Assembly: GCA_041586955.1 (NCBI GenBank) | Contig: JBFGZE010000029.1 | Location: 1-31,530, forward strand | Reading direction: 5' to 3' | DNA length: 31,530 nucleotides | DNA from: Bacteriovoracaceae bacterium | GTDB lineage: Bacteria; Bdellovibrionota; Bacteriovoracia; Bacteriovoracales; Bacteriovoracaceae | Shown here: positions 10,298 through 28,831 of the stretch, in pieces | Layout: each line of letters opens with the position of its first letter | Numbering within the stretch: the first letter of the stretch is position 1 | The notes under the pieces: model-generated | What the model saw: the letters and a program-made list of their open reading frames with translations, nothing else | Told to the model about the DNA's origin: nothing | The model's database searches: none | Position numbers and translations under genes: made by a program

Positions 10298-10492
10298 GTG
10301 GAAAAAGGTACAGTTAAATTTTTTAATATGGAAAAAGGTTATGGATTCATTTCACCAGCTGATGGTAGCAAAGATATCTTTGTTCATGCTACTGGTATTG
10401 TAGGTGAGCCAATCGCTGAAGGTGATTCGGTTGAGTATGAAATTGGTGAAGGTCAAAAAGGACCTTGTGCTGTTCAGGTCATGAAAAAGTAA
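10298..10492 (+). CDS. Cold-shock protein (CspA family)
   Basis: GTVKFFN, RNP1 KGYGFI, RNP2 DIFVH, GQKGPCA; SD AGGAG before a GTG start. Confidence 0.97.
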
Positions 10493-10515
10493 AAAAGATA
10501 TATTCAATTATTGGG

Positions 10516-10542
10516 ACTGGCGTTTTTCTAGCGCCAGTTTTT
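10516..10542 (+). terminator. Rho-independent terminator of the csp gene
   Basis: ACTGGCG...CGCCAGT stem followed by a T-tract. Confidence 0.8.
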
Positions 10543-10927
10543 CTATCAAAAGGCCTAATTGAACAATCATCATAACTTGTTTGAACGCCCTCGTAAGTTA
10601 CTATTAAACTTACGTGTCAATACACTAGACGCTTCATACTAGTGAAATTTGAAGCGGGCTCGATCGATCTGTCTAGAGAATGATGTGAGTAGAGTGATCA
10701 GTATTGGGATTAGCATGAAGCTCTTTTCTAGGTGTTGAGAGTGGTAGTCTTCGTCAATAACTCCTACTAGACAGCGGCAATCTGTAATCTAAAAATACTC
10801 TAATATAATGAGCTTTATCTTCTAATTCTATTAACTAATTTCTCTGGCAAGTGATGGCCCTTACTTGAGGCCATGTCATTGCTCCCTCTTCAACAGTATA
10901 AAATCATTCAAAATCCGACAAAAAAAC

Positions 10928-10954
10928 TTAAGTTCTTTCGTCATTTGCCGATAG
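10928..10954 (+). promoter_or_regulatory. Putative sigma28 (FliA)-type promoter
   Basis: TTAAGTTC-N11-GCCGATAG, close to TAAAGTTT-N11-GCCGATAA; ATG 10962 lies 7 nt downstream. Confidence 0.65.
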
Positions 10955-10961
10955 GGTTAAT

Positions 10962-11162
10962 ATGATTAGATTAGAAACACCAAAGACACAGGTGCGTAGA
11001 CAAGTTCAAATGATAAAAGAGGGCGGCAAAAAGTCTGTTCAAGTCAAACGTATACTCGACGAAAACGAAAAAACTTACAAACGCGCTTATGAAGCTTTAA
11101 TGAATAATCGGCCAGCGGCCGGTGATGCTCGTATTGTCGCAAAAAAGCTCAATATCATTTAA
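10962..11162 (+). CDS. Small basic hypothetical protein (66 aa)
   Basis: Open frame directly behind a sigma28-like promoter and convergent with lysA (10-nt gap). Protein-like composition; no family recognised. Confidence 0.6.
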   Translation: MIRLETPKTQVRRQVQMIKEGGKKSVQVKRILDENEKTYKRAYEALMNNRPAAGDARIVAKKLNII

Positions 11163-11172
11163 TGTCATTACT

Positions 11173-12405
11173 TTAAATCGAAATATCCACCTGATTACGC
11201 AAGAGATCTTCATAGGTTTCACGCCTACGTATAAGATGATCTCTGTCCTGGTAAAGTAGAACTTCTGCCGGCCGAGGCCTTGAATTATAATTTGAGGCCA
11301 TGGAGAAACCATAAGCTCCAGCATTAAGAATTCCCAAGATATCCCCCGTTTTTACTTCCGGTAAGCGGCGGTTGAAGCCGAGAGTATCTGTCTCACAAAT
11401 ATAACCAACAACATTATAAATATGTTTTTCACCACTAGGGTTACTCAAGTTGACTATATGGTGGTAGGAATCATACATCATTGGTCGTAAGAGGTGATTA
11501 AGGCCAGAGTTCACGCCGACAAAGGTATTGGTCGGCGTCTTTTTTACCTGATTGGTCTTAACTAAAAGAAGGCCACTCTCTGAAACTAGGAATTTTCCAG
11601 GTTCAAACCAGACTTCTAAATCTCTTCCATATTTCTTACAAAACACCTTAAATTGTTCACCCAAGCTCTTACCAAGGTGAGCGATATTTGTTTCTTGGTC
11701 TTTATCGGAATATGGAACCTTAAAACCCGAGCCAAAGTCAATAAATTCCAAATTCTCAAATTGAGCAGCGACCTTAAAAATAATTTGAGCACCTTTTAGG
11801 AAAATTTCAGATTCAAGAATATCCGAACCGGTATGAACATGGATACCATTAATGGGAATTTCATATTGTTTTGCAATGGCCAGGATCTCGTCAATCTGAT
11901 GAACTGAGATACCAAACTTGCTGTCGATGTGGCCGGTGCTAATTTTCAAATTGCCACCTGCCATGAGGTGAGGGTTGATCCGTATACAACACTTTTTAGT
12001 CTTGCCATAAAGGCGCCCAAAGTCTTTTAAGATATCGAGACCGTCAATATTAATTTGAACTCCTAATTCAACTGCCTCCTGAATTTCTTCAAATGCCACA
12101 CAATTAGGAGTAAAAAGAATATGTTCGGCAGGATGACCTACTTGTATGGCCATTTTTACTTCATTGAGGGAGACAGCATCAATTTCAACGCCATACTTTT
12201 TCATAAGTTTTAAGATGGTGAGATTCGTTAGCGCCTTTGCTGCGTATTTGATGCGCAAGTTAAGGTCCCCAAATGCTTCTTTAAAAGCGTTTATTTTCTC
12301 TTCAATCGTTTCAGCGTGATAAAGGTAAATGGGATGGCCGTAGCGTTCTATTAATTCTTGTGGACTATGGTTTTTAAAAAACCGCTCTTGAATTTTTTGC
12401 TCCAT
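11173..12405 (-). CDS. lysA: Diaminopimelate decarboxylase
   Basis: PLP lysine in YAAKA, DAVS.NE, RINP, SKFG, HVHTGS, DFGSG, FEPGKFLV, VGYICETD, GAYGFSMASNYNSRPRPAEV. Confidence 0.95.
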   Translation of the reverse strand: MEQKIQERFFKNHSPQELIERYGHPIYLYHAETIEEKINAFKEAFGDLNLRIKYAAKALTNLTILKLMKKYGVEIDAVSLNEVKMAIQVGHPAEHILFTPNCVAFEEIQEAVELGVQINIDGLDILKDFGRLYGKTKKCCIRINPHLMAGGNLKISTGHIDSKFGISVHQIDEILAIAKQYEIPINGIHVHTGSDILESEIFLKGAQIIFKVAAQFENLEFIDFGSGFKVPYSDKDQETNIAHLGKSLGEQFKVFCKKYGRDLEVWFEPGKFLVSESGLLLVKTNQVKKTPTNTFVGVNSGLNHLLRPMMYDSYHHIVNLSNPSGEKHIYNVVGYICETDTLGFNRRLPEVKTGDILGILNAGAYGFSMASNYNSRPRPAEVLLYQDRDHLIRRRETYEDLLRNQVDISI

Positions 12406-12691: not shown

Positions 12692-13387
12692 TTATTTTTT
12701 GTTTACGTCCTTTTGCGGATAGGGGTATTCGCCCTTTAGCGCCATCGTTACTTTTTGGGTAAAATTCAATAATAATGATTTGTCGTGGTGATAGATGCGT
12801 TTTATTTCACCTTGAATGGCATGAATTGAGTCAGTGAGGTCCTTGACCATATTGCCTTTAAAAAGAGGCGCAAAAAATGACTTTGGGTGAATAAAACTAT
12901 GGTATTCAACCAGGCTCTGATTTGTGCTCTTGGGATAAGGTGAAAACTTTGCGAGTCCTTTAACATTCTTCGCTTGATTGCTTTGGACTAAAAACCAGCT
13001 GACTTGATAGGTATGTGACTTAAGCTGATGGAGGTGGTGTCCATGAGTATAGCGACCATCATTTAAAGGCCAAGGCATATCCATGATATAATCAACCCAA
13101 ATTTCTGTAGGGCCTACCAGTTTAGAAATCTTCGCTTTCCTTAATTTGGGTATATAGGTGGTCTGATGCTCGTATGCCGCAAATACTGCTACGGAGGAAA
13201 GGGGATCAGCTTGGGCCTTAAAAAAGCAGATAATCTTTGGCCATGGCGCGTTGTTAACCTTCTCTCTGCGCACAATAACCTCGCCTTCATTGAGCTTTTT
13301 CCACTCCTCAAGAGTGAAGTCTTGTTGAGCCCTTAGAGTAGGTAATGTGATGAATAGCAGGATGACAAAGCACTTAAAAAGTTTCAT
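12692..13387 (-). CDS. Exported START/SRPBCC-superfamily lipid-binding protein
   Basis: Signal peptide MKLFKCFVILLFITLPTLRA. START-like features YIPKL.KAKI and MPWPLNDGRY (compare PWPxxxRD/Y), G.AKFSP...LVEY....HP, and a C-terminal amphipathic helix. Confidence 0.7.
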   Translation of the reverse strand: MKLFKCFVILLFITLPTLRAQQDFTLEEWKKLNEGEVIVRREKVNNAPWPKIICFFKAQADPLSSVAVFAAYEHQTTYIPKLRKAKISKLVGPTEIWVDYIMDMPWPLNDGRYTHGHHLHQLKSHTYQVSWFLVQSNQAKNVKGLAKFSPYPKSTNQSLVEYHSFIHPKSFFAPLFKGNMVKDLTDSIHAIQGEIKRIYHHDKSLLLNFTQKVTMALKGEYPYPQKDVNKK

Positions 13388-13495
13388 TAATTCTATCTTA
13401 GCAGCAGATTGAAGAAATGCATGTTTTTTCTTTCTTTCATTGAAATTTGAAGGTAAGAGTTTTAGGATAGCTTACCGCATAAGGGGAATTTCGGT

Positions 13496-14107
13496 ATGGC
13501 CAGAAATCATCAATCTATTCGTGTTTTTGACAATTCAATTCTAGAAGCTTTGACGCATGTGCATCCAATCACACCTTTATTGATGTGGTCACCAATTGTT
13601 ATTTATCTTACTTATCTCGCGCTCTTTGTTCAGCAATTGTCTTTACTGGCGATGATTTCTTGGGCCTTTATTGGTGTTATCGTTTGGACTTTAATGGAGT
13701 ATGTCGTTCATCGCTATGCCTTTCATTTTCCTGCCAAAAGTAAATTGACGAAACGATTTGTCTTTTTATTTCATGGGATTCACCATGATGAGCCCAATGA
13801 TCCTACACGACTTGTCATGCCTCCAGTTCCTGGGCTTCTTATTATGGGGTTACTATATACTCTCTTCCAGATGATTATTCCGGGGCAATATATAAATATT
13901 TTTATGGCATCATTCATAATCTCTTATTTGGCCTATGATTATATACATTACGCAACTCACCACTTTCCTATGACTTCGAAAGTCGGGCGTTACCTTAAAA
14001 AATACCATCTCCAGCACCATTATACTGATGGCCCCTATAAATATGGGGTTAGTAATCCACTTTGGGATTATGTCTTTAATACTGTTGGACCAAAGAAAGG
14101 TCGTTAG
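13496..14107 (+). CDS. Fatty acid hydroxylase / sterol desaturase family (FA2H/Scs7-like, no cytochrome b5 domain)
   Basis: WTLMEYVVHRYAFH, HGIHHDEP..RLVMPP, YDYIHYATHH, KKYHLQHHY, YGVSNPLWDYVF. These are the four His boxes and flanking motifs of sphingolipid alpha-hydroxylases. Confidence 0.9.
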   Translation: MARNHQSIRVFDNSILEALTHVHPITPLLMWSPIVIYLTYLALFVQQLSLLAMISWAFIGVIVWTLMEYVVHRYAFHFPAKSKLTKRFVFLFHGIHHDEPNDPTRLVMPPVPGLLIMGLLYTLFQMIIPGQYINIFMASFIISYLAYDYIHYATHHFPMTSKVGRYLKKYHLQHHYTDGPYKYGVSNPLWDYVFNTVGPKKGR

Positions 14108-14908
14108 ATGACGGTTTGCCGGTGGTTTCTTTGCGCATGCCTTATTTTCTCTTCCGCTTTATTACCCCAGGAGAGAGGAGATATTAAAGAGGATACGAAA
14201 ACAACAATTGATTATTTCTTACATGCTTCTTATCAGCAATTTACGGTTAAAAATAATCTCTATTATTCCGGAGTGGCCATTCCTACTCTTTGGTATAGTT
14301 TTGAGCATGATGACCGAGTGACTGCTTATGCCATGTCTCGAGAGATAAAAAATAGTGTCGATCATGTCGGTGATGCAGGTATTATTTTTAATTTTCCCCT
14401 CGTGCCAATAGGGTTGTATTTATATGGCCGGCGTAAACAAAATACGAAACTAATGCAATTCTCGATGGAATATGCGGCTGCCATGTACCTGGCCTTAGCT
14501 GAGTCCGGACTTATAAGCTATATTCCTGTCCATGACCGACCGAGCTTAAATGGCATTTCTTTTTGGGAGACGGCCTTTCGCGCGGATTCGTCTTTTCCCT
14601 CTGGCCATATCATTCCTTACTCCACCCTCTTTTTTAAGACACTTCAGTTTTATGGCCCTTATTGGTCGATAATACCTCTTACAATGACAGTTATGTCCAG
14701 TATGCAGAGAGTTCAAGAAGGTAGGCATTACTTTTCGGATATTATTGGTAGCTTTTTTCTTTCGGCCTTTGCCAGTGAGGGAGTGCGGGCGCGCGCCAAT
14801 TACCAAGGGAACCACCCTTTTTACAAATGGATATTCGAGAATCAGGCCCAGGTGACATTTTGGAAGAATCAAGAAACTTGGCGCGTGGGTCTTCAGTTTT
14901 CTTATTAG
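14108..14908 (+). CDS. PAP2-superfamily phosphatase/phosphotransferase
   Basis: ATG directly follows the hydroxylase TAG. C1 ...VHDRP, C2 SFPSGH, C3 QRVQEGRHYFSD; hydrophobic segments; signal-like N-terminus. Confidence 0.85.
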   Translation: MTVCRWFLCACLIFSSALLPQERGDIKEDTKTTIDYFLHASYQQFTVKNNLYYSGVAIPTLWYSFEHDDRVTAYAMSREIKNSVDHVGDAGIIFNFPLVPIGLYLYGRRKQNTKLMQFSMEYAAAMYLALAESGLISYIPVHDRPSLNGISFWETAFRADSSFPSGHIIPYSTLFFKTLQFYGPYWSIIPLTMTVMSSMQRVQEGRHYFSDIIGSFFLSAFASEGVRARANYQGNHPFYKWIFENQAQVTFWKNQETWRVGLQFSY

Positions 14909-15285
14909 ATAAGCAATTCTTTGACCTTTTGCTCGAATTGATCGAGGTCATAGGGTTTGGGCATGAAATGGCATTCCCCATTATTAAATAGCGCCTCGAG
15001 AGGTTCAGGCCCCAGTTCACCAGAGCTTAAAATAACTCGGTCCAATGGGGTTTGGTAAACACTCGGATCCTTTTTCATCGCGAAGATAATATCAGAACCT
15101 TTCATCTTAGGAATATTGAGGTCGAGAATGATAAGTGACAATGGACGAGTTTTGATGAGGTCATTGGCCTCATCTCCGTTTTTCAGATGAAGGACTGGTT
15201 TATCGGGACAGATATCTTTTAATATATCGATAATAATATCCGCTAAATCCTGGTTATCTTCGACAATCAAAATCTCGTTGGCCAT
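14905..15285 (-). CDS. Single-domain response regulator (receiver)
   Basis: ILIVEDN, phosphoacceptor in ILDLNIP.M.G, ILSS, FMPKPYD; SD AAGGAG. Confidence 0.9.
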   Translation of the reverse strand: MANEILIVEDNQDLADIIIDILKDICPDKPVLHLKNGDEANDLIKTRPLSLIILDLNIPKMKGSDIIFAMKKDPSVYQTPLDRVILSSGELGPEPLEALFNNGECHFMPKPYDLDQFEQKVKELLI

Positions 15286-15371
15286 GATGGGTCTCCTTCA
15301 TCGTTTTTCTAGTATAACGGAGTTCGAAATTTTTGTCTTAGGTTTTGGGAAAATTAGCTTTTTAGATATTA

Positions 15372-16349
15372 TTAAATAGAGTTTGTCGACTGATAGTCCT
15401 GCACTGTGACTTTAATGGTTTTTTCTAAAGTCCAATTATATGAATAGGATAGGGCCTCGCTAATTGGTCCGCCATCGCAGGTCCATTTATTTTGAATAAT
15501 TTCATGATATTTATCAGGTGTTAGACGGATATTGAGGGGGAAAACTCTCGCTGCAAGGCCTATTAAGACAGTTGCCAATTTTAAGAGGGTCCGAGGGACT
15601 GGGAGTAATAGAGGTCGTTTGAGCCCCATGGTTTTTGCCATGGTATTAGTCAACTCAGTAAAGCTCACAACCTCATCCGAAGCGGTGAAATAAGGTGTCT
15701 TGCCTAGAGGCTTGTCCAGGCAATTGATGATGATTTCGACCAAATCAAACACACAAATAAAGTTATAAAGGGAATGTTTTCCCGCTTGGCCACAAACGGG
15801 AACCTTACCCTTTTGCACCATTTTAAAGACATCAAGCATTGCTTGGTCTTTGGGACCTATGACCATCGGTGGGCGTAGTATACTGAGTTGCCAATTGGGA
15901 GGGGCCCATTCTTGGAGGAAATTTTCCGCTTGTAATTTGGAGTACCCATAAGAGCTTACAGGGCCTAAATGGATCCCTCTCTGGGTTTCTGGTCCGGCAG
16001 CAGCAAGAGAAGAGAGAAAAATAAAATGGAGTTGGTCGTATTTCTTTTTGAGGGCCTGCGCCAAATTTTTTGTTCCTTGAAAATTAATGGCCGCAAAATC
16101 TTTTTTATGATGAGAATGAACAATACCTGCTGTGTGGATAATTGTTTTAGGGCCCTCTGGTAATTGAGGAAGGATGGTATCAATTGAGTGAGGAGATAAG
16201 TCCCCGATAATGGCCTGGCCAGGTAATTGGCATTGGTTAAACTTTTTTTGACTGCGAACCAATGAATAAACGTCATGCCCTTCTTCATCTAATCGCTGGA
16301 CCAAGTGACGACCAACAAATCCTGTCGCCCCTGTTACTAAAACTATCAT
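15372..16349 (-). CDS. cerR: NAD(P)-dependent extended SDR, probable ceramide (3-oxoceramide) reductase
   Basis: VTGATGFVG, IHTAG, LSSLAAAG, YGYSK (YxxxK), LRPPMVIGP. TAATG coupling to the upstream GNAT. The function is assigned from context next to spt and bcerS. Confidence 0.75.
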   Translation of the reverse strand: MIVLVTGATGFVGRHLVQRLDEEGHDVYSLVRSQKKFNQCQLPGQAIIGDLSPHSIDTILPQLPEGPKTIIHTAGIVHSHHKKDFAAINFQGTKNLAQALKKKYDQLHFIFLSSLAAAGPETQRGIHLGPVSSYGYSKLQAENFLQEWAPPNWQLSILRPPMVIGPKDQAMLDVFKMVQKGKVPVCGQAGKHSLYNFICVFDLVEIIINCLDKPLGKTPYFTASDEVVSFTELTNTMAKTMGLKRPLLLPVPRTLLKLATVLIGLAARVFPLNIRLTPDKYHEIIQNKWTCDGGPISEALSYSYNWTLEKTIKVTVQDYQSTNSI

Positions 16350-17467
16350 TATGAGATTTCCATTTCAAAGAGGCGATAGGTCTTATCTGGGCTGGCCCCC
16401 ATCCTCATAATGGGTTTGATCATATTGACATTATCTTCAAGGATCCAAGATAGTTCGGCATCTTGATAACGAAATTCACGGAGAGTCTTATGCATTTTGC
16501 TGTAGAGAAGCGTTTCTAGGCCATAGCGACGAAATTTTTGTTTCACGCCAAGAGTAATCACGCGGCAGCGGTTAATATATTTTTTAGGCCGTAGGAGTTT
16601 GAAAATACCAGTGGGGAGAAGCTTCCCGGAGGGAATCTCTTTCATGACTTGATTAAAGTCTGGTAGACATATGATAAAACCAGCGGGCTCATTATCAACA
16701 TAGACAATATTTATTAGGCGCTCATCGATGATCATTTTGAGATCTTGGGCGGTGTGCAGGAACTCTTCATCAGTCATAGGAACAAAGCCCCAATTCTTTT
16801 CCCAGGCATTATTATAAATTTCGTGCAGGATTTTAATCTCCTCTTCCCAATTCTTTTTAATGACATGGCGGTAAGTGATGTTTTTGGTTTTCTCTGTCCG
16901 CTCCGCAATTTTACGAATTATCTCGGGCATCTGAAAGTCCAAGTCTAAACGAAAGGCGATCAGATCTTTCGCTTTGGTAAACCCATAGGATTCCAAGAAA
17001 TCGCGGTGAAAAGGCTTATTATAAAGCATCATAATTTGGGGAGGATCATCATATCCATCAATGAGGGTACCCACTTCGTAATTAGTTGATGGATTGACCG
17101 GACCTAAAATCGTGGTCTTACCCTGGGCCTTTAAATAGGCCGAAACAGCATCGAAGAGTGCTTTGGCAACTATTTGGTCTTCAATACTTTCGAAGAAGCC
17201 AAAAAAGCCTGTTTGATCACTGTGAAACTGATTATATTTTTCATTGGTGATGGCGCTTATCCGGCCGACAGGTTTATTGTTCTGGTAGGCGAGGAAGGAA
17301 TGGATTTTCCCGGTTTGAAAAAAGGGATGACTCTTTTTAAAGAGATCTTTGACCGCCATTTTGAGAGGTGGTACCCAAGGACTATCTTGATCGTAGAGGC
17401 TCCAGGGAAGATCGATAAAGGTATTGAGGTCTTTCTTACTAATAACCGGACGAACTTCTACGGACAT
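16349..17467 (-). CDS. bcerS: Double-GNAT N-acyltransferase, probable bacterial ceramide synthase
   Basis: FIDLPWSLY..D..WVPPL, VGRISA, GFFGFFE, GPVNPSTN.E.G.L..G, YN.AWEKNWGFVP, LPDFNQ, ELSWILEDN: signature of the bCerS (YghO-like) family. Lies immediately downstream of spt. Confidence 0.85.
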   Translation of the reverse strand: MSVEVRPVISKKDLNTFIDLPWSLYDQDSPWVPPLKMAVKDLFKKSHPFFQTGKIHSFLAYQNNKPVGRISAITNEKYNQFHSDQTGFFGFFESIEDQIVAKALFDAVSAYLKAQGKTTILGPVNPSTNYEVGTLIDGYDDPPQIMMLYNKPFHRDFLESYGFTKAKDLIAFRLDLDFQMPEIIRKIAERTEKTKNITYRHVIKKNWEEEIKILHEIYNNAWEKNWGFVPMTDEEFLHTAQDLKMIIDERLINIVYVDNEPAGFIICLPDFNQVMKEIPSGKLLPTGIFKLLRPKKYINRCRVITLGVKQKFRRYGLETLLYSKMHKTLREFRYQDAELSWILEDNVNMIKPIMRMGASPDKTYRLFEMEIS

Positions 17468-17480
17468 ATTTGACTCTCAA

Positions 17481-18683
17481 TTAATTAACATTTCCTGGAA
17501 TATCAAATTTCTTTTTGGCCAAAGCGAATACTTCAAGAACTTTGGTCAGCTCTTCTTTTTGATGAGTGGCCATATAGCTGGTACGGATGAGTGCCTCACC
17601 TTTAGGAACAGCAGGACTGACAACTGGAGTGGCAAATATACCATTTTCAAAAAGAAATTGGGTGACCATCATCGATTTAATATCGTCACCAATAAAAATA
17701 GGGATTATTGGAGTTTTTGAATGATAGGTAAAAAAGCCAATTTCTTTAAAGCCTTGACGCATAAATTCGACGTTATCCCATAATCTTTGATGAATAGTTC
17801 CATCTTGGGCAATGACGTCAAGACAGGCCGAAACCGTCGCAACGGCCGATGGTGGCATCGCTGCTGAAAACATAAAACTTCTGGCCGAATGCTTAATATA
17901 ATCGATTAGATCTGAGTTACCACTGATGACGCCACCGATAGAGGCAAATGATTTTGAAAATGTTCCCATATTAATGGTGACATCTTTTGTAACATTGAAG
18001 TGATCCATAGTACCACGACCGCGATCACCCATTACGCCAATACCATGGGCATCGTCGACATAGAGATGGGCGCCATACTTTTTGGCCAAGGCCACGACCT
18101 CAGGTAATTTGGCAATATCTCCGGTCATAGAGAAGACACCATCAGTGACGATGGTAACATTGGTAAAACGGTTAACCGTTTGTTCCAATTGTTCTTCAAG
18201 GGATTCCATATCGTTATGCTTATATTTAAAAGTTGGTCCGAGTGCCAAGCGGCTGGCGTCGATAATCGAGGCGTGATTTTCAGAATCAAAAAGAAGGCAA
18301 TCTTTAGGCCCACAAATACAGGGAATGGCCCCTAAGTTGGACTGCATGCCAGTGGCAAATACGATGGCCTTTTCATGACCTAAATAATTGGCCAATTTTT
18401 CTTCTAATTCTTCGTGTAGGATAAGGTTACCGTTAAGAAAACGCGATCCTGTACATCCAGTGCCATAGGTATCAATCGCCTTTTTCGCTTGCTCAACCAC
18501 ATAAGGGTGATGAGTAAGGCCAAGGTAGTTATTGGAGCCAATCATAATTTGTGGTTTGCCGTCGACTTGAACGACTGTCCCTTCAGAGTTCTCAATGGCC
18601 CGGAAGAAAGGGTATAGGTCTTTCTGCTTAAGTAAATTGGCCCTTTGAATCATTTTATGGCCACGAAGCGTTTCTACCATCAT
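17481..18683 (-). CDS. spt: Serine palmitoyltransferase (alpha-oxoamine synthase family)
   Basis: YPFFRAI, GSNNYLGL, GTGCTGSRFLNG, NHASIIDA, DGVFSM, DDAH, PLP-Lys motif GTFSKS (SPT-type), SFMFSA. Recalled as very similar to B. stolpii SPT. Start placed at ATG 18683 behind GGTGA rather than TTG 18737. Confidence 0.93.
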   Translation of the reverse strand: MMVETLRGHKMIQRANLLKQKDLYPFFRAIENSEGTVVQVDGKPQIMIGSNNYLGLTHHPYVVEQAKKAIDTYGTGCTGSRFLNGNLILHEELEEKLANYLGHEKAIVFATGMQSNLGAIPCICGPKDCLLFDSENHASIIDASRLALGPTFKYKHNDMESLEEQLEQTVNRFTNVTIVTDGVFSMTGDIAKLPEVVALAKKYGAHLYVDDAHGIGVMGDRGRGTMDHFNVTKDVTINMGTFSKSFASIGGVISGNSDLIDYIKHSARSFMFSAAMPPSAVATVSACLDVIAQDGTIHQRLWDNVEFMRQGFKEIGFFTYHSKTPIIPIFIGDDIKSMMVTQFLFENGIFATPVVSPAVPKGEALIRTSYMATHQKEELTKVLEVFALAKKKFDIPGNVN

Positions 18684-18813
18684 GCGGGGTATCTCACCGT
18701 TAAAATTTAAAAAATATAATAGGAAATGAGATACCAAGGAGGGAAGTAACCAGTCAAGTTGATTGGGTATTTGATGACATTTTTATTATGGCTCTTGCTA
18801 TTAGCGTCATTAA

Positions 18814-24500: not shown

Positions 24501-26549
24501 ATGCTTATGAAAGTAGCGAAAAAATTCACATTAAAGAATACAGACAAGGCCACCTTAAGACAGTGGTATTCTCTTTTAACATTAGGCCGGCAGATCGATG
24601 AAAGGGCACCTAATTATTTAAAGCAGGCCATTGGTTGGTCCTATCACGCTCCTTACGCTGGTCATGACGGCATTCAATTGGCCATCGGACAAGCTTTTAC
24701 TCTAGGTGAAGATCATTTATTTCCTTACTATCGCGATATGCTCACTGCTTTGTCCAGTGGCCTAACCGCGGAAGAAATTATTCTTAATGGAATCTCAAAA
24801 GGTACTGATATCGCTAGTGGTGGCCGGCATATGTCCAATCATTTTGCCAAGCCAGAGTGGAATGTTCATAACGTTTCTTCTTGTACTGGGAATCATACTT
24901 TACACGCTGTGGGTGTCGCCCGCGCTATGAAAAAGTATGGCCATAAAGGTGTGGCCATTTCAAGTCAGGGCGAATCTTCAGTTTCAGAAGGTTATTGCTA
25001 TGAGGCGATCAATGGGGCGTCTCGGGAAAAGCTACCAGTCATTTTTGTATTCCAAGATAATGGATACGGTATTTCCGTTCCTAAATGGGTGCAAACGGCC
25101 AATGATCGCGTCTCTGACAACTTCAGTGGTTTTGCTAATTTGCGTATCATTCAATGTGATGGCAAAGATATTTTTGATTCCATGAATGCCATGGCCGAAG
25201 CACGTAAGCATGTTCTCCAAAAAGGAGAACCAGTTATCGTTGACGCTGAATGTGTACGTATTGGAAGTCATTCCAACTCTGACAAACATGAACTTTATAG
25301 AGATGAACAGGAGCGAGAAGAGGCCAAAAGCAAAGACCCTCTTATGCTTTTTAAAAAGCAAATGCTTGATCATAAATTATTAACGAAGAAGGAAATGGAA
25401 GAGCTTGATCAAGAAGCGCGTGCCATTCTACTCGATGCTCATACAAAGTCAGTAAAGGCACCAAATCCAGACCCTGCCTCTATCTTTGATTTTGTTATTC
25501 CAGCTCCCTATGTTTCCACAAAATACCCAGAGGGGACTCATAACAAAGCTGGCGAGCCGATGAAATTTATCGATGCTCTAAACTCCACCTTAAAAGCAGA
25601 GTTTCGCCATAACCCTGATACCTTTATTTGGGGTCAAGATATGGCCAATAAGGAAAAGGGGGGGATTTTTAACGTTTCTAAAGGCATGCAGCAAGAATTT
25701 GGTGAAGAACGTGTCTTCAATGCGCCTATTGCCGAAGATTTTATTATGGGGACGGCCAATGGCTTTTCTCGCTTTAATAAAGATATTCGCGTAGTGGTTG
25801 AAGGTGCTGAGTTTGCTGATTATTTCTGGCCGGCAATGGAGCAATTCATTGAAACAACTCACGAATATTGGCGAACCAATGGTCAATTTTCACCGAATAT
25901 TACCATTCGTTTAGCGAGTGGAGGTTATATTGGTGGCGGCCTTTATCACTCACAAAACCTTGAGGCGTCATTAACGCCAATTCCAGGTATTCGTATTGTT
26001 ACACCGGCCTTTGCTGACGACGCTGCTGGTCTTCTTAGAACCTGTATGCGCTCTGAAGGTCCAACACTTTTTCTTGAGCCCAAAGCTCTTTATAATGCCA
26101 AGCAGGCGATGACCGTGGTACCGGAGGATTTTGAAGTTCCTTTTGGTAAATGCCGTGTCCGTCGTGATGGAAGCGACCTGACCATCTTAACTTATGGTAA
26201 TACAGTTCATCACTGCTTAGAAGCTGCAGAGCTTATTGCAGAGGAAGATGGATCACAAATTGAAGTGGTAGACCTTCGCTCCTTAAGCCCCCTCGATGAA
26301 GAGGGAATTCTTCGTTCTGTGGCCAAAACTAACCGCTGTCTAGTAGTCCATGAGGATAAAGTCTTTGGTGGATTTGGTGGCGAGCTCGTGGCCCTTATTA
26401 ATGAAAAGGCCTTCGAGAAATTAGATGCTCCGGTTCGTCGGGTTGGATCAACATTTACCCCAGTTGGTTTTAATCGTATTCTTGAAAAGGCGATTCTCCC
26501 CAATACGGATAAAGTGGTCTCAGCCGCAAGAGATCTTTTAAGTTATTAA
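24501..26549 (+). CDS. Fused E1 alpha/beta 2-oxoacid dehydrogenase, probably branched-chain (2-oxoisovalerate) type
   Basis: PYYRD, GGRHMSNH, TPP-binding variant GESSVSEG...QDNGYGIS, R..SHS.SD in the alpha part. VFNAPIAE, EFADY, GGGLYHSQ, FLEPK.LY, VDLRSL.PLD, LDAPV.RV in the beta part. Confidence 0.9.
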   Translation: MLMKVAKKFTLKNTDKATLRQWYSLLTLGRQIDERAPNYLKQAIGWSYHAPYAGHDGIQLAIGQAFTLGEDHLFPYYRDMLTALSSGLTAEEIILNGISKGTDIASGGRHMSNHFAKPEWNVHNVSSCTGNHTLHAVGVARAMKKYGHKGVAISSQGESSVSEGYCYEAINGASREKLPVIFVFQDNGYGISVPKWVQTANDRVSDNFSGFANLRIIQCDGKDIFDSMNAMAEARKHVLQKGEPVIVDAECVRIGSHSNSDKHELYRDEQEREEAKSKDPLMLFKKQMLDHKLLTKKEMEELDQEARAILLDAHTKSVKAPNPDPASIFDFVIPAPYVSTKYPEGTHNKAGEPMKFIDALNSTLKAEFRHNPDTFIWGQDMANKEKGGIFNVSKGMQQEFGEERVFNAPIAEDFIMGTANGFSRFNKDIRVVVEGAEFADYFWPAMEQFIETTHEYWRTNGQFSPNITIRLASGGYIGGGLYHSQNLEASLTPIPGIRIVTPAFADDAAGLLRTCMRSEGPTLFLEPKALYNAKQAMTVVPEDFEVPFGKCRVRRDGSDLTILTYGNTVHHCLEAAELIAEEDGSQIEVVDLRSLSPLDEEGILRSVAKTNRCLVVHEDKVFGGFGGELVALINEKAFEKLDAPVRRVGSTFTPVGFNRILEKAILPNTDKVVSAARDLLSY

Positions 26550-26593: not shown

Positions 26594-28831
26594 TTACTTT
26601 GAGGTCAGAGTATAAACCCCGTCCCATTCTGGAGGTGGTGGCAACTCTTTAAATTGTTTACAACGCTCTAAATATATCTCGGAGGGGTTTGTTTTTTTGC
26701 CCTTGAGTCCCGGAAAGCGTTGGTACTCCAACTCTAGAGTTTCTTCAAAAAGCGCAATGGCCTGATCCCATTGTTGGGATTTGTAGAGGTCTATTGCTTG
26801 TTTAAACTTTATCGATAAATCTTTGAGATATTGTGGGGCTGTTTCTTTGAGCCCTAATAAATCATAGGTCGTCACTGGTATGGATTTCCCGACCACCTTA
26901 ATGGTATCCAACTCTCGGTAGAGGAATTCATCACCGGCAGCTTCCATCGTGTCAGTTGAGATTTGAGTGAAGATACCATATTGCTTGGCGCCTTCTTCTA
27001 AACGAGCGGCGAGGTTCACAGAATCACCCATCATAGTATAATTCATTCTTGAGGCAGAACCCATATTTCCGGTCACGATTTCGCCGGTATTAATACCTAT
27101 TCTCATTCGCATCTCATGAACGATTTGGGGCCATTTATCTCCTTCACTGACCCATTTTTTTCTCAATTCTAATAATGATTCCTGCATACGGTGGGCGACC
27201 ATACAGGCGCGGCGGGCGTGATCTTCCAGTGGCATGGGGGCGCCGAAAAAAGCAATAATCGCATCCCCTTCGTATTTATCAAGTGTTCCATTTTCATCGA
27301 GTAGGATATCGGTCATAGCAGTTAGGTATTCATTGAGAAGTTCAACCAATTGGGTCGCTGATAATTTTTCGGAAAAAGTCGAAAAGCTTTGGATATCGGT
27401 GAAAAAAGCTGTTCGAATCCCGCAATCACCACCAAGCTCAGGGGCGACACCTGTCGAATACATTTCGTCAATAAGTTCAGGGGAAATATAGTTTCCAAAG
27501 GCATTTTTGAGGAAGGCCTTATCTTTATTGGCCAGATAAAAATTGAGAAAGGTGTTCCAGGAATAGCAAGCACCTACAGAAAAGAGGCAGAAAAATAATT
27601 TAATCTCATAACCTTTCGGTAAGAGGTAATAGGTGTCAATAAAGTAGAGGCCAACAGTTATGCCCAGAACAGATATTAAATCCAGAAGTGGATGAGCTAA
27701 AAATTGCACTAAAAGAATAATAATTGTTCCTACGATGAGAATAAGCCAAGAGAATTTGGTAGACTCGTCGAGATTTTTAAAGAATTTACCCTCGAGTAGC
27801 ATATGGGTCATATTCATATGAAAGTAAATTCCGGGCATCATTGAATCGACAGGTGTATGCCGGAGATCGTGGGCACCAAAAGCAGTAGAGCCAATAAAAA
27901 CTGCTCGGCCATCAAAAATTTGTTTCATTTCAGGATCATTATCATCTGCCGCAATAATTTTCCAAATCGGTACGCGCGGAAAGCTATTTTGGTTGCCGAG
28001 CCAGCGAACCTTGGCCTCTCCTCTTTGACTAAGGGTTAAGGTCCCTGTTTTTAATTTTAAAATTGGAGTACCATCACCGCCATATTCGAAGTGTGGCTTG
28101 TCACCTGTAAAATGCTCGTAGCTAGAGAGCGCAAATGAGGGAAAATAAAGGGTATCAACATTGCCTACAACAGGATAATGACGGAAGATCCCATCGTTAT
28201 CGGCGGTCGCCTCAATATGGGCAATGGCGGCTTCAGTCTCAGTTAAAATGGGAAGTGGAAAAACTTTGGTTTCAACAAAGCGGGGGTCGAGGTTATTCTC
28301 ACCCTCAATTTTGGAGTCCATGATAAAATTGTAAAGAGTTTCAGGCATCTCCTTAAAAGTATCTTCGTGCGGGTATTGACTTAAAGAATAGGGAAGGACA
28401 ACTTTATTTCCTGGGACAGATTGGAATCTTTTAATGGCATCGGCCATTTTTTGCTCAGGCGTCACACCACCACAAGAGTTCGATTCTTCACTAAAGAACA
28501 CATCGTAAGCGATAACTTTTGCGCCAAAAGTGTTTAATTTATCCATCATCTTGGCCCAATTGTCTCGAGGTAATGGCCATTTTCCAATTTTCTTTATACT
28601 TTCATCATCTATTTCTGCTAAGACTAAACGTTTATCGACGGCCTTGGGGTCTAGGGTTTTTAACATTCGAATATCATAAAAACGATCTTCAAAAAGGGAA
28701 GTATAAGAAAAAAGTTTACGGTAGGTATGCCCAGGAGGAAATTCACGTAAATTAATAGAAAAGAAAATACTAATCGCAGAAAAGATAAAAATAAGGGTCA
28801 GGCCAAAAACCTTTACGATTCGCTCAATCAT
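26594..28831 (-). CDS. CHASE2-domain class III adenylate/guanylate cyclase
   Basis: N-terminal TM. CHASE2 motifs IDDESI...GKWP.PR, GAKVIAYDVFF, D.DGIFR, VFIG.TA.G..D...TP...MPG. Three TMs, then catalytic FFTDIQSFS, DKYEGDA, RIGINTG, YTMMGDSVNLAARLE, VVGK. C-terminal TPR-like tail ending WDGV. Confidence 0.95.
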   Translation of the reverse strand: MIERIVKVFGLTLIFIFSAISIFFSINLREFPPGHTYRKLFSYTSLFEDRFYDIRMLKTLDPKAVDKRLVLAEIDDESIKKIGKWPLPRDNWAKMMDKLNTFGAKVIAYDVFFSEESNSCGGVTPEQKMADAIKRFQSVPGNKVVLPYSLSQYPHEDTFKEMPETLYNFIMDSKIEGENNLDPRFVETKVFPLPILTETEAAIAHIEATADNDGIFRHYPVVGNVDTLYFPSFALSSYEHFTGDKPHFEYGGDGTPILKLKTGTLTLSQRGEAKVRWLGNQNSFPRVPIWKIIAADDNDPEMKQIFDGRAVFIGSTAFGAHDLRHTPVDSMMPGIYFHMNMTHMLLEGKFFKNLDESTKFSWLILIVGTIIILLVQFLAHPLLDLISVLGITVGLYFIDTYYLLPKGYEIKLFFCLFSVGACYSWNTFLNFYLANKDKAFLKNAFGNYISPELIDEMYSTGVAPELGGDCGIRTAFFTDIQSFSTFSEKLSATQLVELLNEYLTAMTDILLDENGTLDKYEGDAIIAFFGAPMPLEDHARRACMVAHRMQESLLELRKKWVSEGDKWPQIVHEMRMRIGINTGEIVTGNMGSASRMNYTMMGDSVNLAARLEEGAKQYGIFTQISTDTMEAAGDEFLYRELDTIKVVGKSIPVTTYDLLGLKETAPQYLKDLSIKFKQAIDLYKSQQWDQAIALFEETLELEYQRFPGLKGKKTNPSEIYLERCKQFKELPPPPEWDGVYTLTSK

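Follow-up and report, generated by a model that had tools for sequence, protein, structure and literature searches.

A conserved Bacteriovoracaceae locus joins candidate ceramide synthesis genes to a hydroxylase gene, a PAP2 gene and a START-like gene

Results

Genes and packing of the locus

We analyzed a stretch of 31,530 nucleotides (nt) from Bacteriovoracaceae bacterium (GenBank assembly GCA_041586955.1, contig JBFGZE010000029.1, positions 1 to 31,530 of the forward strand), referred to below as the window. The assembly, 88% complete, totals 3.46 Mb in 194 contigs, of which the window represents contig C29. It contains a compact group of genes assigned here to sphingolipid synthesis, namely the putative ceramide core genes spt, bcerS and cerR, together with three accessory genes encoding an FA2H/Scs7-type hydroxylase, a PAP2-family protein and a START-like protein (Table 1). 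The locus was contained in three sequencing runs, all of DNA and all from a single marine metagenome study.

In an earlier note made from the sequence alone, the three core genes had been described as co-directional, with a 13-nt gap followed by a TAATG overlap. This was confirmed at the junctions: the TAA stop codon of spt is followed by 13 nt and the ATG of bcerS, and TAATG is common to the end of bcerS and the start of cerR. The accessory genes had been placed within about 2.7 kb, with the hydroxylase gene coupled to PAP2 and the START-like gene divergent. Indeed, the ends of cerR and of the START-like gene are 2.68 kb apart, and the TAG of the hydroxylase gene abuts the ATG of PAP2 with zero spacer, again as read directly from the sequence. 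The six gene identities proposed in that note also hold, at the family or fold level. Two genes had been omitted from it: PAP2 and cerR are separated by a response regulator gene, and directly upstream of spt lies a PilZ gene.

A promoter-like sequence, TTGAAA-17-TAGGAT, is located at 13440-13468 on the forward strand, ahead of the hydroxylase-PAP2 pair. When eight orthologous spacers were aligned, -35- and -10-like blocks were found at the matching position. Neither the promoter scan as a whole (27 hits versus 18.3 +/- 5.4 in shuffles) nor the terminator scan (9 versus 7.4 +/- 2.6) exceeded shuffled sequences.

Table 1. Features of the putative sphingolipid locus, with positions in the window (aa, amino acids; domain values are E-values)
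Feature	Size	Position	Strand	Remarks
START-like gene	231 aa	12692..13387	-	Divergent from hydroxylase gene
Divergent intergenic spacer, START-like/hydroxylase	108 bp	13388..13495		Promoter-like site for hydroxylase-PAP2 pair
Hydroxylase gene, FA2H/Scs7-type	203 aa	13496..14107	+	PF04116
PAP2 gene	266 aa	14108..14908	+	PF01569
Receiver-only response regulator	126 aa	14905..15285	-	PF00072, 6.1e-13
cerR candidate, extended short-chain dehydrogenase/reductase	325 aa	15372..16349	-	PF01370
bcerS candidate, GNAT-type acyltransferase	372 aa	16349..17467	-	PF00583
spt	400 aa from ATG; 418 aa from alternative TTG at 18737	17481..18683	-	
PilZ-domain protein	245 aa	18814..19551	-	PF07238, 2.6e-7

The ceramide core

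The best NCBIfam model for Spt was the serine palmitoyltransferase model NF047600 (500 bits, under the cut-off of 640). Its top matches in the PDB were the serine palmitoyltransferases 8guh and 3a2b, at 384 bits, compared with 286 bits for the best BioF/Kbl-type chain. Judged from these alignments, Spt is a pyridoxal phosphate (PLP)-dependent alpha-oxoamine synthase closest to characterized serine palmitoyltransferases.

For bCerS, a weak match to the GNAT family was the only one obtained (PF00583, E 1.1e-5), and no NCBIfam model was assigned; the position of its gene between spt and cerR is kept across relatives. CerR matched PF01370 (2.9e-28) and further NAD-binding models of short-chain dehydrogenases/reductases (SDR), carries an N-terminal GATGFVG motif, and is encoded by a gene that is syntenic in relatives. 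The names bcerS and cerR are used here because family type and the conserved place beside spt coincide. In Caulobacter, according to PMC11087976, Spt and bCerS are cytoplasmic and CerR is a periplasmic, NDUFA9-like protein. The CerR encoded in the window has no visible signal peptide or leader.

The FA2H/Scs7-type hydroxylase

The hydroxylase matched PF04116 with an E-value of 1.1e-20. Residues 11-199 align with the yeast ceramide fatty-acid 2-hydroxylase Scs7p (4zr1, E 6.2e-27), and each of the four His boxes (HRYAFH72, HGIHH93, HYATHH151 and HLQHH171) is aligned to a box of Scs7p. By hydropathy scan alone, the hydrophobic stretches 27-66 and 106-145 each fit two helices, giving four transmembrane helices. 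Scs7p was the sole match returned in the solved-structure search, and a C4-hydroxylase-type (Sur2-type) activity is thus compatible as well. The protein is only 203 aa long and its alignment spans the hydroxylase domain only, without an N-terminal cytochrome b5 domain. That domain is also missing from plant FA2H enzymes, and myxobacteria have functional FA2H orthologues tied to sphingolipids (Ring et al. 2009), both as stated in the review PMC10002949.

The PAP2 protein

The PAP2 protein matched PF01569 (4.5e-8). Invariant in all ten aligned sequences were H142-x-R144-P145, S165-G166-H167, R201, H207 and D211, and the catalytic motifs C2 (SGH) and C3 (R-x5-H-x3-D) are present. The C1 motif (K-x6-RP) deviates at the lysine position, which is occupied by an invariant serine (Ser137); R144-P145 is kept, and the invariant His142 stands two residues ahead of the C1 arginine. 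The best NCBIfam match was a YbjG-type undecaprenyl-diphosphatase (E 9.6e-13, 48.5 bits versus a cut-off of 229 bits). In the Pfam scan, no match to PF14360 (sphingomyelin synthase) was reported, and PF14378 stayed below the cut-off at E 0.0018. The protein had been likened to LPP/SMS-type enzymes (SMS, sphingomyelin synthase) in the earlier note; given the conserved C1 and C3 arginines, the missing PF14360 match and the phosphatase-type NCBIfam match, the SMS part of this comparison was not borne out. The missing signature lowers the case that PAP2 is an SMS, not the case that it could transfer a head group. As far as the motifs go, the retained arginines favor a phosphatase.

A signal peptide of the cleavable type precedes PAP2. 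The helices are weakly hydrophobic, with a family mean of at most 1.29 in a 19-residue Kyte-Doolittle window, and the grand average of hydropathy (GRAVY) of the mature protein is -0.21. In 10/10 sequences the C-terminal residue is aromatic and closes an alternating hydrophobic stretch, a pattern reminiscent of the C-terminal signal of outer-membrane proteins. A PDB sequence search with PAP2 alone yielded no match. When a PAP2 profile was compared with solved PAP2 proteins, the matches were weak and at motif level, the best being YodM/PgpB (E 0.012), with PhoN at E 0.22.

In a maximum-likelihood tree of 34 PAP2 rows, a single branch (99/97 support) splits 29 sequences linked to the locus genes from 5 unlinked ones. 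An unlinked paralogue is encoded on contig C16 of the same genome. There it follows a hybrid kinase gene, with another PAP2 gene and an OmpR-type regulator close by.

The START-like protein

On its own, the START-like protein had no Pfam or NCBIfam match, and a word-based search for homologues gave nothing beyond the query. A profile built from seven orthologues retrieved 607 cluster representatives at E <= 0.001, 157 of them at <= 1e-30. From the best 150 matches, with short or partial members dropped, we obtained an alignment of 96 members, 18 of which match Polyketide_cyc2 (PF10604) and 8 Polyketide_cyc (PF03364). In a comparison of the family profile with the PDB, the best matches were the bacterial START-related protein 3qsz at E 0.021 and phosphatidylcholine transfer protein at E 0.13. 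The atlas neighbors of the protein were Polyketide_cyc/START clusters.

A single-sequence AlphaFold2 (AF2) prediction was discarded because of its low confidence (predicted local distance difference test, pLDDT, 44.9). With the 96-sequence alignment, AF2 gave a pLDDT of 93.9 and a predicted template-modelling score of 0.88. In this model, strands lie between residues 38 and 168 and are followed by a helix at 173-201, which is the helix-grip fold. The top Foldseek match was again 3qsz (E 7.6e-10, target-normalised template-modelling score 0.78), followed by STARD10, StarD13 and many CERT START entries, the latter at E ~5e-8 to 1e-6. Plant hormone receptors and polyketide cyclases share the fold and score almost as high. 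The START/SRPBCC fold is confirmed at the level of the predicted structure.

The N-terminus carries a hydrophobic segment (residues 3-21), and in 7/7 orthologues a hydrophobic leader is followed by a cleavage-type site of small residues. A lipobox is absent from the leaders of these seven orthologues. On account of the leader, the small-residue site and the missing lipobox, the protein is most likely exported and soluble. Taken with the modelled fold, this makes it a candidate periplasmic lipid carrier, with ceramide as a predicted ligand.

Synteny of the block

With the window proteins as tblastn queries, 11 relatives' loci were collected, all from the same family. In 6 of the 11, the whole block is present, consisting of pepN, PilZ-spt-bcerS-cerR, PAP2-hydroxylase and the START-like gene. 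A PAP2-guided scan with one genome per species gave 21 loci with family-level matches; the relatives reached in this way were Halobacteriovorax, Bacteriovorax, Bacteriovoracaceae and a few metagenome-assembled genomes titled as other taxa. In 17 of these 21 loci, PAP2 is at least 42% identical to the protein of the window and always lies within the block, while the other four (36-40%) are unlinked. The START-like, hydroxylase and PAP2 genes occur together in 15 of the 17 linked-clade loci. The block extends to pepN in 11 of the 17 (one of them without cerR), and four others end at contig ends. Synteny and co-occurrence, on which the earlier note had proposed to check the grouping, turned out largely positive. 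Beyond the START-like gene lies lysA, which is never syntenic in related loci, and therefore the block ends at the START-like gene.

Rearranged genomes were also found. In one of them (G017), PilZ-bcerS and PAP2 are kept together and spt (64% identical) is on another contig; in a second (G024), PilZ-spt-cerR and PAP2 are kept and bcerS is elsewhere. The adjacency of PAP2 to a core gene survives these rearrangements. The accessory genes follow a nested pattern around the core: the hydroxylase gene stands alone beside cerR in four genomes (G015, G050, G172 and G002), two (G007 and G017) have PAP2 but not the START-like gene, and the START-like gene was seen only beside a linked PAP2 in the loci examined, including one with START-PAP2 and no hydroxylase gene (G168). 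In G024, both PAP2 and the START-like gene are present, on separate contigs.

Distribution across genomes

The phylum sample comprised 201 genomes and was searched with a cut-off of E <= 1e-20 for bCerS and E <= 1e-25 for a strong START-like match. Full-length bCerS homologues were found in 106 of the 201 genomes. A strong START-like match was present in 27, and 23 of these have bCerS. The close form of the START-like protein was found only in bCerS-positive genomes. Outside the family, the START-like genes have neighbors that are either uninformative or of a general envelope kind (PBP1, heptosyltransferase, DegP-like proteases) and give no lipid clue. In one genome (G180) where bCerS was not found, there are two short START-like fragments (G180:C1:2719237-2719506 and 2280291-2280500), one with internal stops, which may be decaying remnants.

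A second sample consisted of 151 genomes from the phylum of G218, which was reached through a record titled Verrucomicrobia. Here, the START-like family was found in one genome (G227) and a bCerS-like gene in ten, G227 included; this co-occurrence was seen once, against a base rate near 7%. The same genome also has an Spt-like gene, 47% identical.

Phosphonate and kinase genes

Bacteriovorax stolpii makes sphingophosphonolipids (Watanabe et al. 2001, as cited in PMC8942020), and the earlier note had drawn an analogy to these lipids. Phosphoenolpyruvate (PEP) mutase was not found in the 88%-complete genome of the locus. Among 41 related genomes it exceeded the cut-off in 5, two of which lack a full-length bCerS match, and only 2 of the 7 full-block genomes have it; in the near-complete (99-100%) full-block genomes G003, G009, G011 and G013, no match over the cut-off was obtained. 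We also considered a phosphonate head group as the explanation for PAP2 and the START-like gene and rejected it, as the distribution of these genes is independent of PEP mutase. Given the absence of a PEP mutase match and the independent distribution, the phosphonolipid analogy does not carry over, and the head group here is probably not a phosphonate. One side observation concerns G014, in which a distant bCerS-like gene (24% identical, E 6.4e-18) adjoins a PEP mutase gene above the cut-off (G014:C53:9331-10146 and 10452-11282). This gene may encode an N-acyltransferase tied to phosphonate lipid chemistry.

CpgB of Caulobacter is described as a DAGK_cat-type ceramide kinase in PMC10331486. 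In the locus genome, the only DAGK_cat match had 24.9 bits. CDP-alcohol transferases gave two matches in the genome, which we take to be housekeeping enzymes.

PilZ and other neighboring genes

The PilZ protein has the canonical cyclic di-GMP (c-di-GMP) motifs RSNYR at 122 and DISAGG at 148. In relatives, its gene lies on the same strand directly upstream of spt, or upstream of bcerS where spt has moved (G017). On the basis of motifs and gene order, the protein may couple sphingolipid synthesis to c-di-GMP.

The response regulator gene between PAP2 and cerR occurs only in this genome and has no counterpart in related loci. Elsewhere, the PAP2-cerR gap is filled by a histidine kinase, by VTT/DedA and AhpC genes, by a GDSL lipase or by an unknown open reading frame (ORF). 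Two-component genes recur beside the PAP2 family (L018:7499-8950, L100:10544-12019 and L024:3624-5966), and a HAMP-HisKA-HATPase kinase gene follows PAP2 in two related genomes. In one locus, the PAP2-cerR gap holds genes for a VTT/DedA-family membrane protein (L017:7890-8450) and an AhpC-type peroxiredoxin (L017:8459-8932); lipid flipping is a process to which DedA proteins have been linked. In one clade, PAP2 is followed on the same strand by an ORF of 511-567 aa (L013:8636-10171, L029:10838-12382 and L031:7284-8987). None of these ORFs belongs to a significant Pfam family, two being without any match and one below the cut-off at E 4.5e-4.

Three further genes of the window were noted. A fusion protein of 955 aa, with phosphopantetheine-binding, AMP-binding ligase and PlsC-type acyltransferase parts, is encoded at 128-2995 on the reverse strand, about 10 kb from the locus, and may act in acyl activation/acylation. 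A fused E1 alpha/beta 2-oxoacid dehydrogenase component (24501-26549, forward strand) could supply branched-chain primers. A CHASE2-adenylate/guanylate cyclase is encoded at 26594-28831 on the reverse strand.

Discussion

The accessory module is real and conserved, as seen in its gene identities at the family or fold level, its packing, its synteny and its nested co-occurrence with the core. We read it as part of a conserved sphingolipid locus of the Bacteriovoracaceae type, in which three functional partners accompany the ceramide core, and give this reading a probability of about 55%. From context and fold, we infer that the module serves the maturation and export of sphingolipids, and from the same sources come the substrates, step order, compartments and carrier function proposed below.

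In the proposed pathway, Spt would condense serine with an acyl thioester, and bCerS would N-acylate the product, both in the cytoplasm, whereas the keto group would be reduced by CerR. At the inner membrane, the four-helix FA2H/Scs7-type di-metal hydroxylase would introduce a 2-hydroxyl group into the amide-linked acyl chain. Once an as yet unnamed protein had flipped the lipid, CerR and the exported PAP2 and START-fold proteins would all act on the periplasmic side. There, PAP2 would act on the C1 head-group position, either by moving a phospho-head group onto ceramide from a glycerophospholipid donor or by removing a phosphate. Finally, the START-fold protein would take the finished lipid into its pocket and carry it across the periplasm towards the outer membrane. 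Head-group transfer is slightly favored over phosphate removal, because the block contains no other candidate for head-group chemistry than PAP2, which is distributed independently of phosphonate synthesis. A more specific version, in which the START-fold protein is a periplasmic sphingolipid shuttle between the two membranes and a functional counterpart of eukaryotic CERT, paired with an unusual, weakly hydrophobic, exported PAP2 that installs or trims the head group, and in which a c-di-GMP-binding PilZ protein ties the output to this second messenger, is less likely than not and is put forward tentatively.

Several observations weigh against a working sphingolipid module. All of the support for it is contextual. 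The bCerS and CerR candidates were assigned by family and position. The strong synteny is confined to one family in which pepN, an unrelated gene, is equally syntenic, and for this reason synteny alone is weak evidence. The synteny counts are also not independent, since the PAP2-guided loci were found via PAP2 itself and some of them duplicate genomes of the 11-locus set. PAP2 retains the phosphatase-type arginines (C1 Arg144 and C3 Arg201) without the SMS signature. No clear DAGK_cat-type ceramide kinase was found in the 88%-complete genome, and the failure of the phosphonolipid analogy belongs to the same side of the balance.

The distribution data include further points of this kind. Family f6 has bCerS in 32/32 genomes and family f15 in 9/9, with no strong START-like match in either; because these bCerS-positive families do without it, the START-like gene is not a general part of the pathway. 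It is unlinked to bCerS in 5/5 Bdellovibrionota genomes examined outside the family and in G227. The four START-like-positive genomes where bCerS was not found are all four genomes of genus g43, whose START-like proteins are 24-28% identical, about 200 aa long and set in a different context; spt was not found in the two of these genomes that were checked. Hydroxylase homologues exist in G004 (49% identity) and G021 (36%), two genomes in which no bCerS and no spt could be found. The expectation that the accessory genes would be exclusive to spt-positive genomes is thus weakened, both by the hydroxylase homologues of G004 and G021 and by the divergent START-like subfamily of g43.

The alternative that survives best, although we consider it unlikely, is that the block is an inherited neighborhood only and that the accessory genes serve other envelope chemistry. 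PAP2 would then dephosphorylate lipid A, undecaprenyl diphosphate or phosphatidylglycerol phosphate, the substrates of the hydroxylase would be other acyl lipids, and the START-like protein would bind hydrophobic molecules of the periplasm in general. The equal synteny of pepN fits this explanation, but synteny stops directly past the START-like gene, with lysA never conserved. Likewise, the best NCBIfam match of PAP2 is the YbjG-type undecaprenyl-diphosphatase, and its paralogue and some linked copies adjoin two-component genes, as envelope-remodelling phosphatases often do; yet the linked PAP2 clade is separate from the unlinked paralogue, and PAP2 stays by a core gene after spt or bcerS has moved. 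Hydroxylase and distant START-like homologues do occur where spt was not found, and START-like genes elsewhere lie among those for PBP1, heptosyltransferase and DegP-like proteases, whereas the close START-like form was found only in bCerS-positive genomes.

It is distinctly less probable that the module is as described but that PAP2 acts as a phosphomonoesterase on ceramide-1-phosphate or long-chain-base phosphate, serving turnover or the control of outer-membrane charge, with the START-like protein handing over the substrate instead of exporting the product. The invariant Arg144 and Arg201 are those of phosphatases, but an invariant serine takes the place of the C1 lysine. Weak hydrophobicity and a signal peptide resemble the soluble class A acid phosphatases, and PhoN was matched weakly (E 0.22); however, all profile matches to solved PAP2 proteins are weak, including the best one, YodM/PgpB (E 0.012). 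The restriction of the START-like gene to loci with a linked PAP2, among those examined, would agree with such a handover, whereas no clear ceramide kinase was found in the 88%-complete genome (the only DAGK_cat match having 24.9 bits). Very improbable is a use as predation tools, in which the two secreted proteins, PAP2 and START-like, target the lipids of the prey during invasion and are merely co-regulated with the predator's phospholipase-resistant sphingolipids: both proteins carry signal peptides and the relatives are predatory (Halobacteriovorax, Bacteriovorax, Bacteriovoracaceae), but genes for secretion systems or hydrolases are missing from the block, a genome of the Verrucomicrobia-titled sample has the START-like family as well, and nothing ties either protein to prey.

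The core ceramide pathway and the bacterial FA2H-sphingolipid link, in myxobacteria, are already known. We know of no head-group enzymes in Bdellovibrionota. In our full-text literature search, neither a START-like nor a PAP2 gene was linked to a bacterial spt; Stankeviciute 2022 and Ikushiro 2007 were outside its scope and may bear on this point. For Caulobacter, no sphingolipid flippase or transporter to the outer membrane has been identified so far according to PMC11087976. The locus offers three small, easily expressed candidates for such open steps of bacterial sphingolipid maturation and transport, and the START-like protein is a testable candidate for the carrier that brings sphingolipids to the outer membrane. 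If the reading as a maturation and export module is true, a secreted carrier with the START fold would parallel CERT in bacteria, and the locus would give a handle on how predators build an outer membrane unlike that of their prey.

Comparison with known systems

The closest known system is the Spt/bCerS/CerR ceramide pathway of Caulobacter crescentus, which Stankeviciute et al. 2022 are said to have described. It has in common with the locus a tight, co-directional unit of a PLP-dependent serine palmitoyltransferase, a GNAT-type acyltransferase and a NAD-binding extended SDR. The Caulobacter sphingolipid locus reportedly includes genes for an acyl carrier protein (ACP) and an ACP synthetase, whereas the block described here has neither. 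Here, the unit begins with a PilZ gene and has hydroxylase, PAP2 and START-like genes attached to it. Bacteriovorax stolpii belongs to a related predatory lineage that also makes sphingolipids, but it is a phosphonolipid maker, and PEP mutase was not found in the locus genome.

Like FA2H and Scs7p, the hydroxylase shows a full-length match over the hydroxylase domain, four His boxes and two hydrophobic helix pairs. It differs from the enzymes of animals, fungi and protists, which have a cytochrome b5 domain, and two genomes in which spt was not found have homologues of it as well. The myxobacterial FA2H orthologues are the bacterial precedent, their sphingolipid connection being already known. 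With the PAP2 superfamily (PgpB/YodM, class A acid phosphatases and sphingomyelin synthases), the PAP2 of the locus shares the SGH of C2, the R-x5-H-x3-D of C3 and the RP of C1. It departs from this superfamily by the invariant serine in place of the C1 lysine, by weak hydrophobicity, by its signal peptide and by its aromatic C-terminus; no match to the sphingomyelin synthase model was reported, and its matches to solved proteins are weak (best E 0.012).

The START-like protein shares the helix-grip fold with the START domains of CERT, STARD10 and the Xanthomonas START-related protein 3qsz, but its identity to START lipid-transfer domains is 10-14% and it has no PF01852 match. CERT directs its START domain by targeting parts, a PH domain and an FFAT motif. 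The START-like protein has none of these and is instead a single domain with a signal peptide, and therefore it would work in the periplasm.

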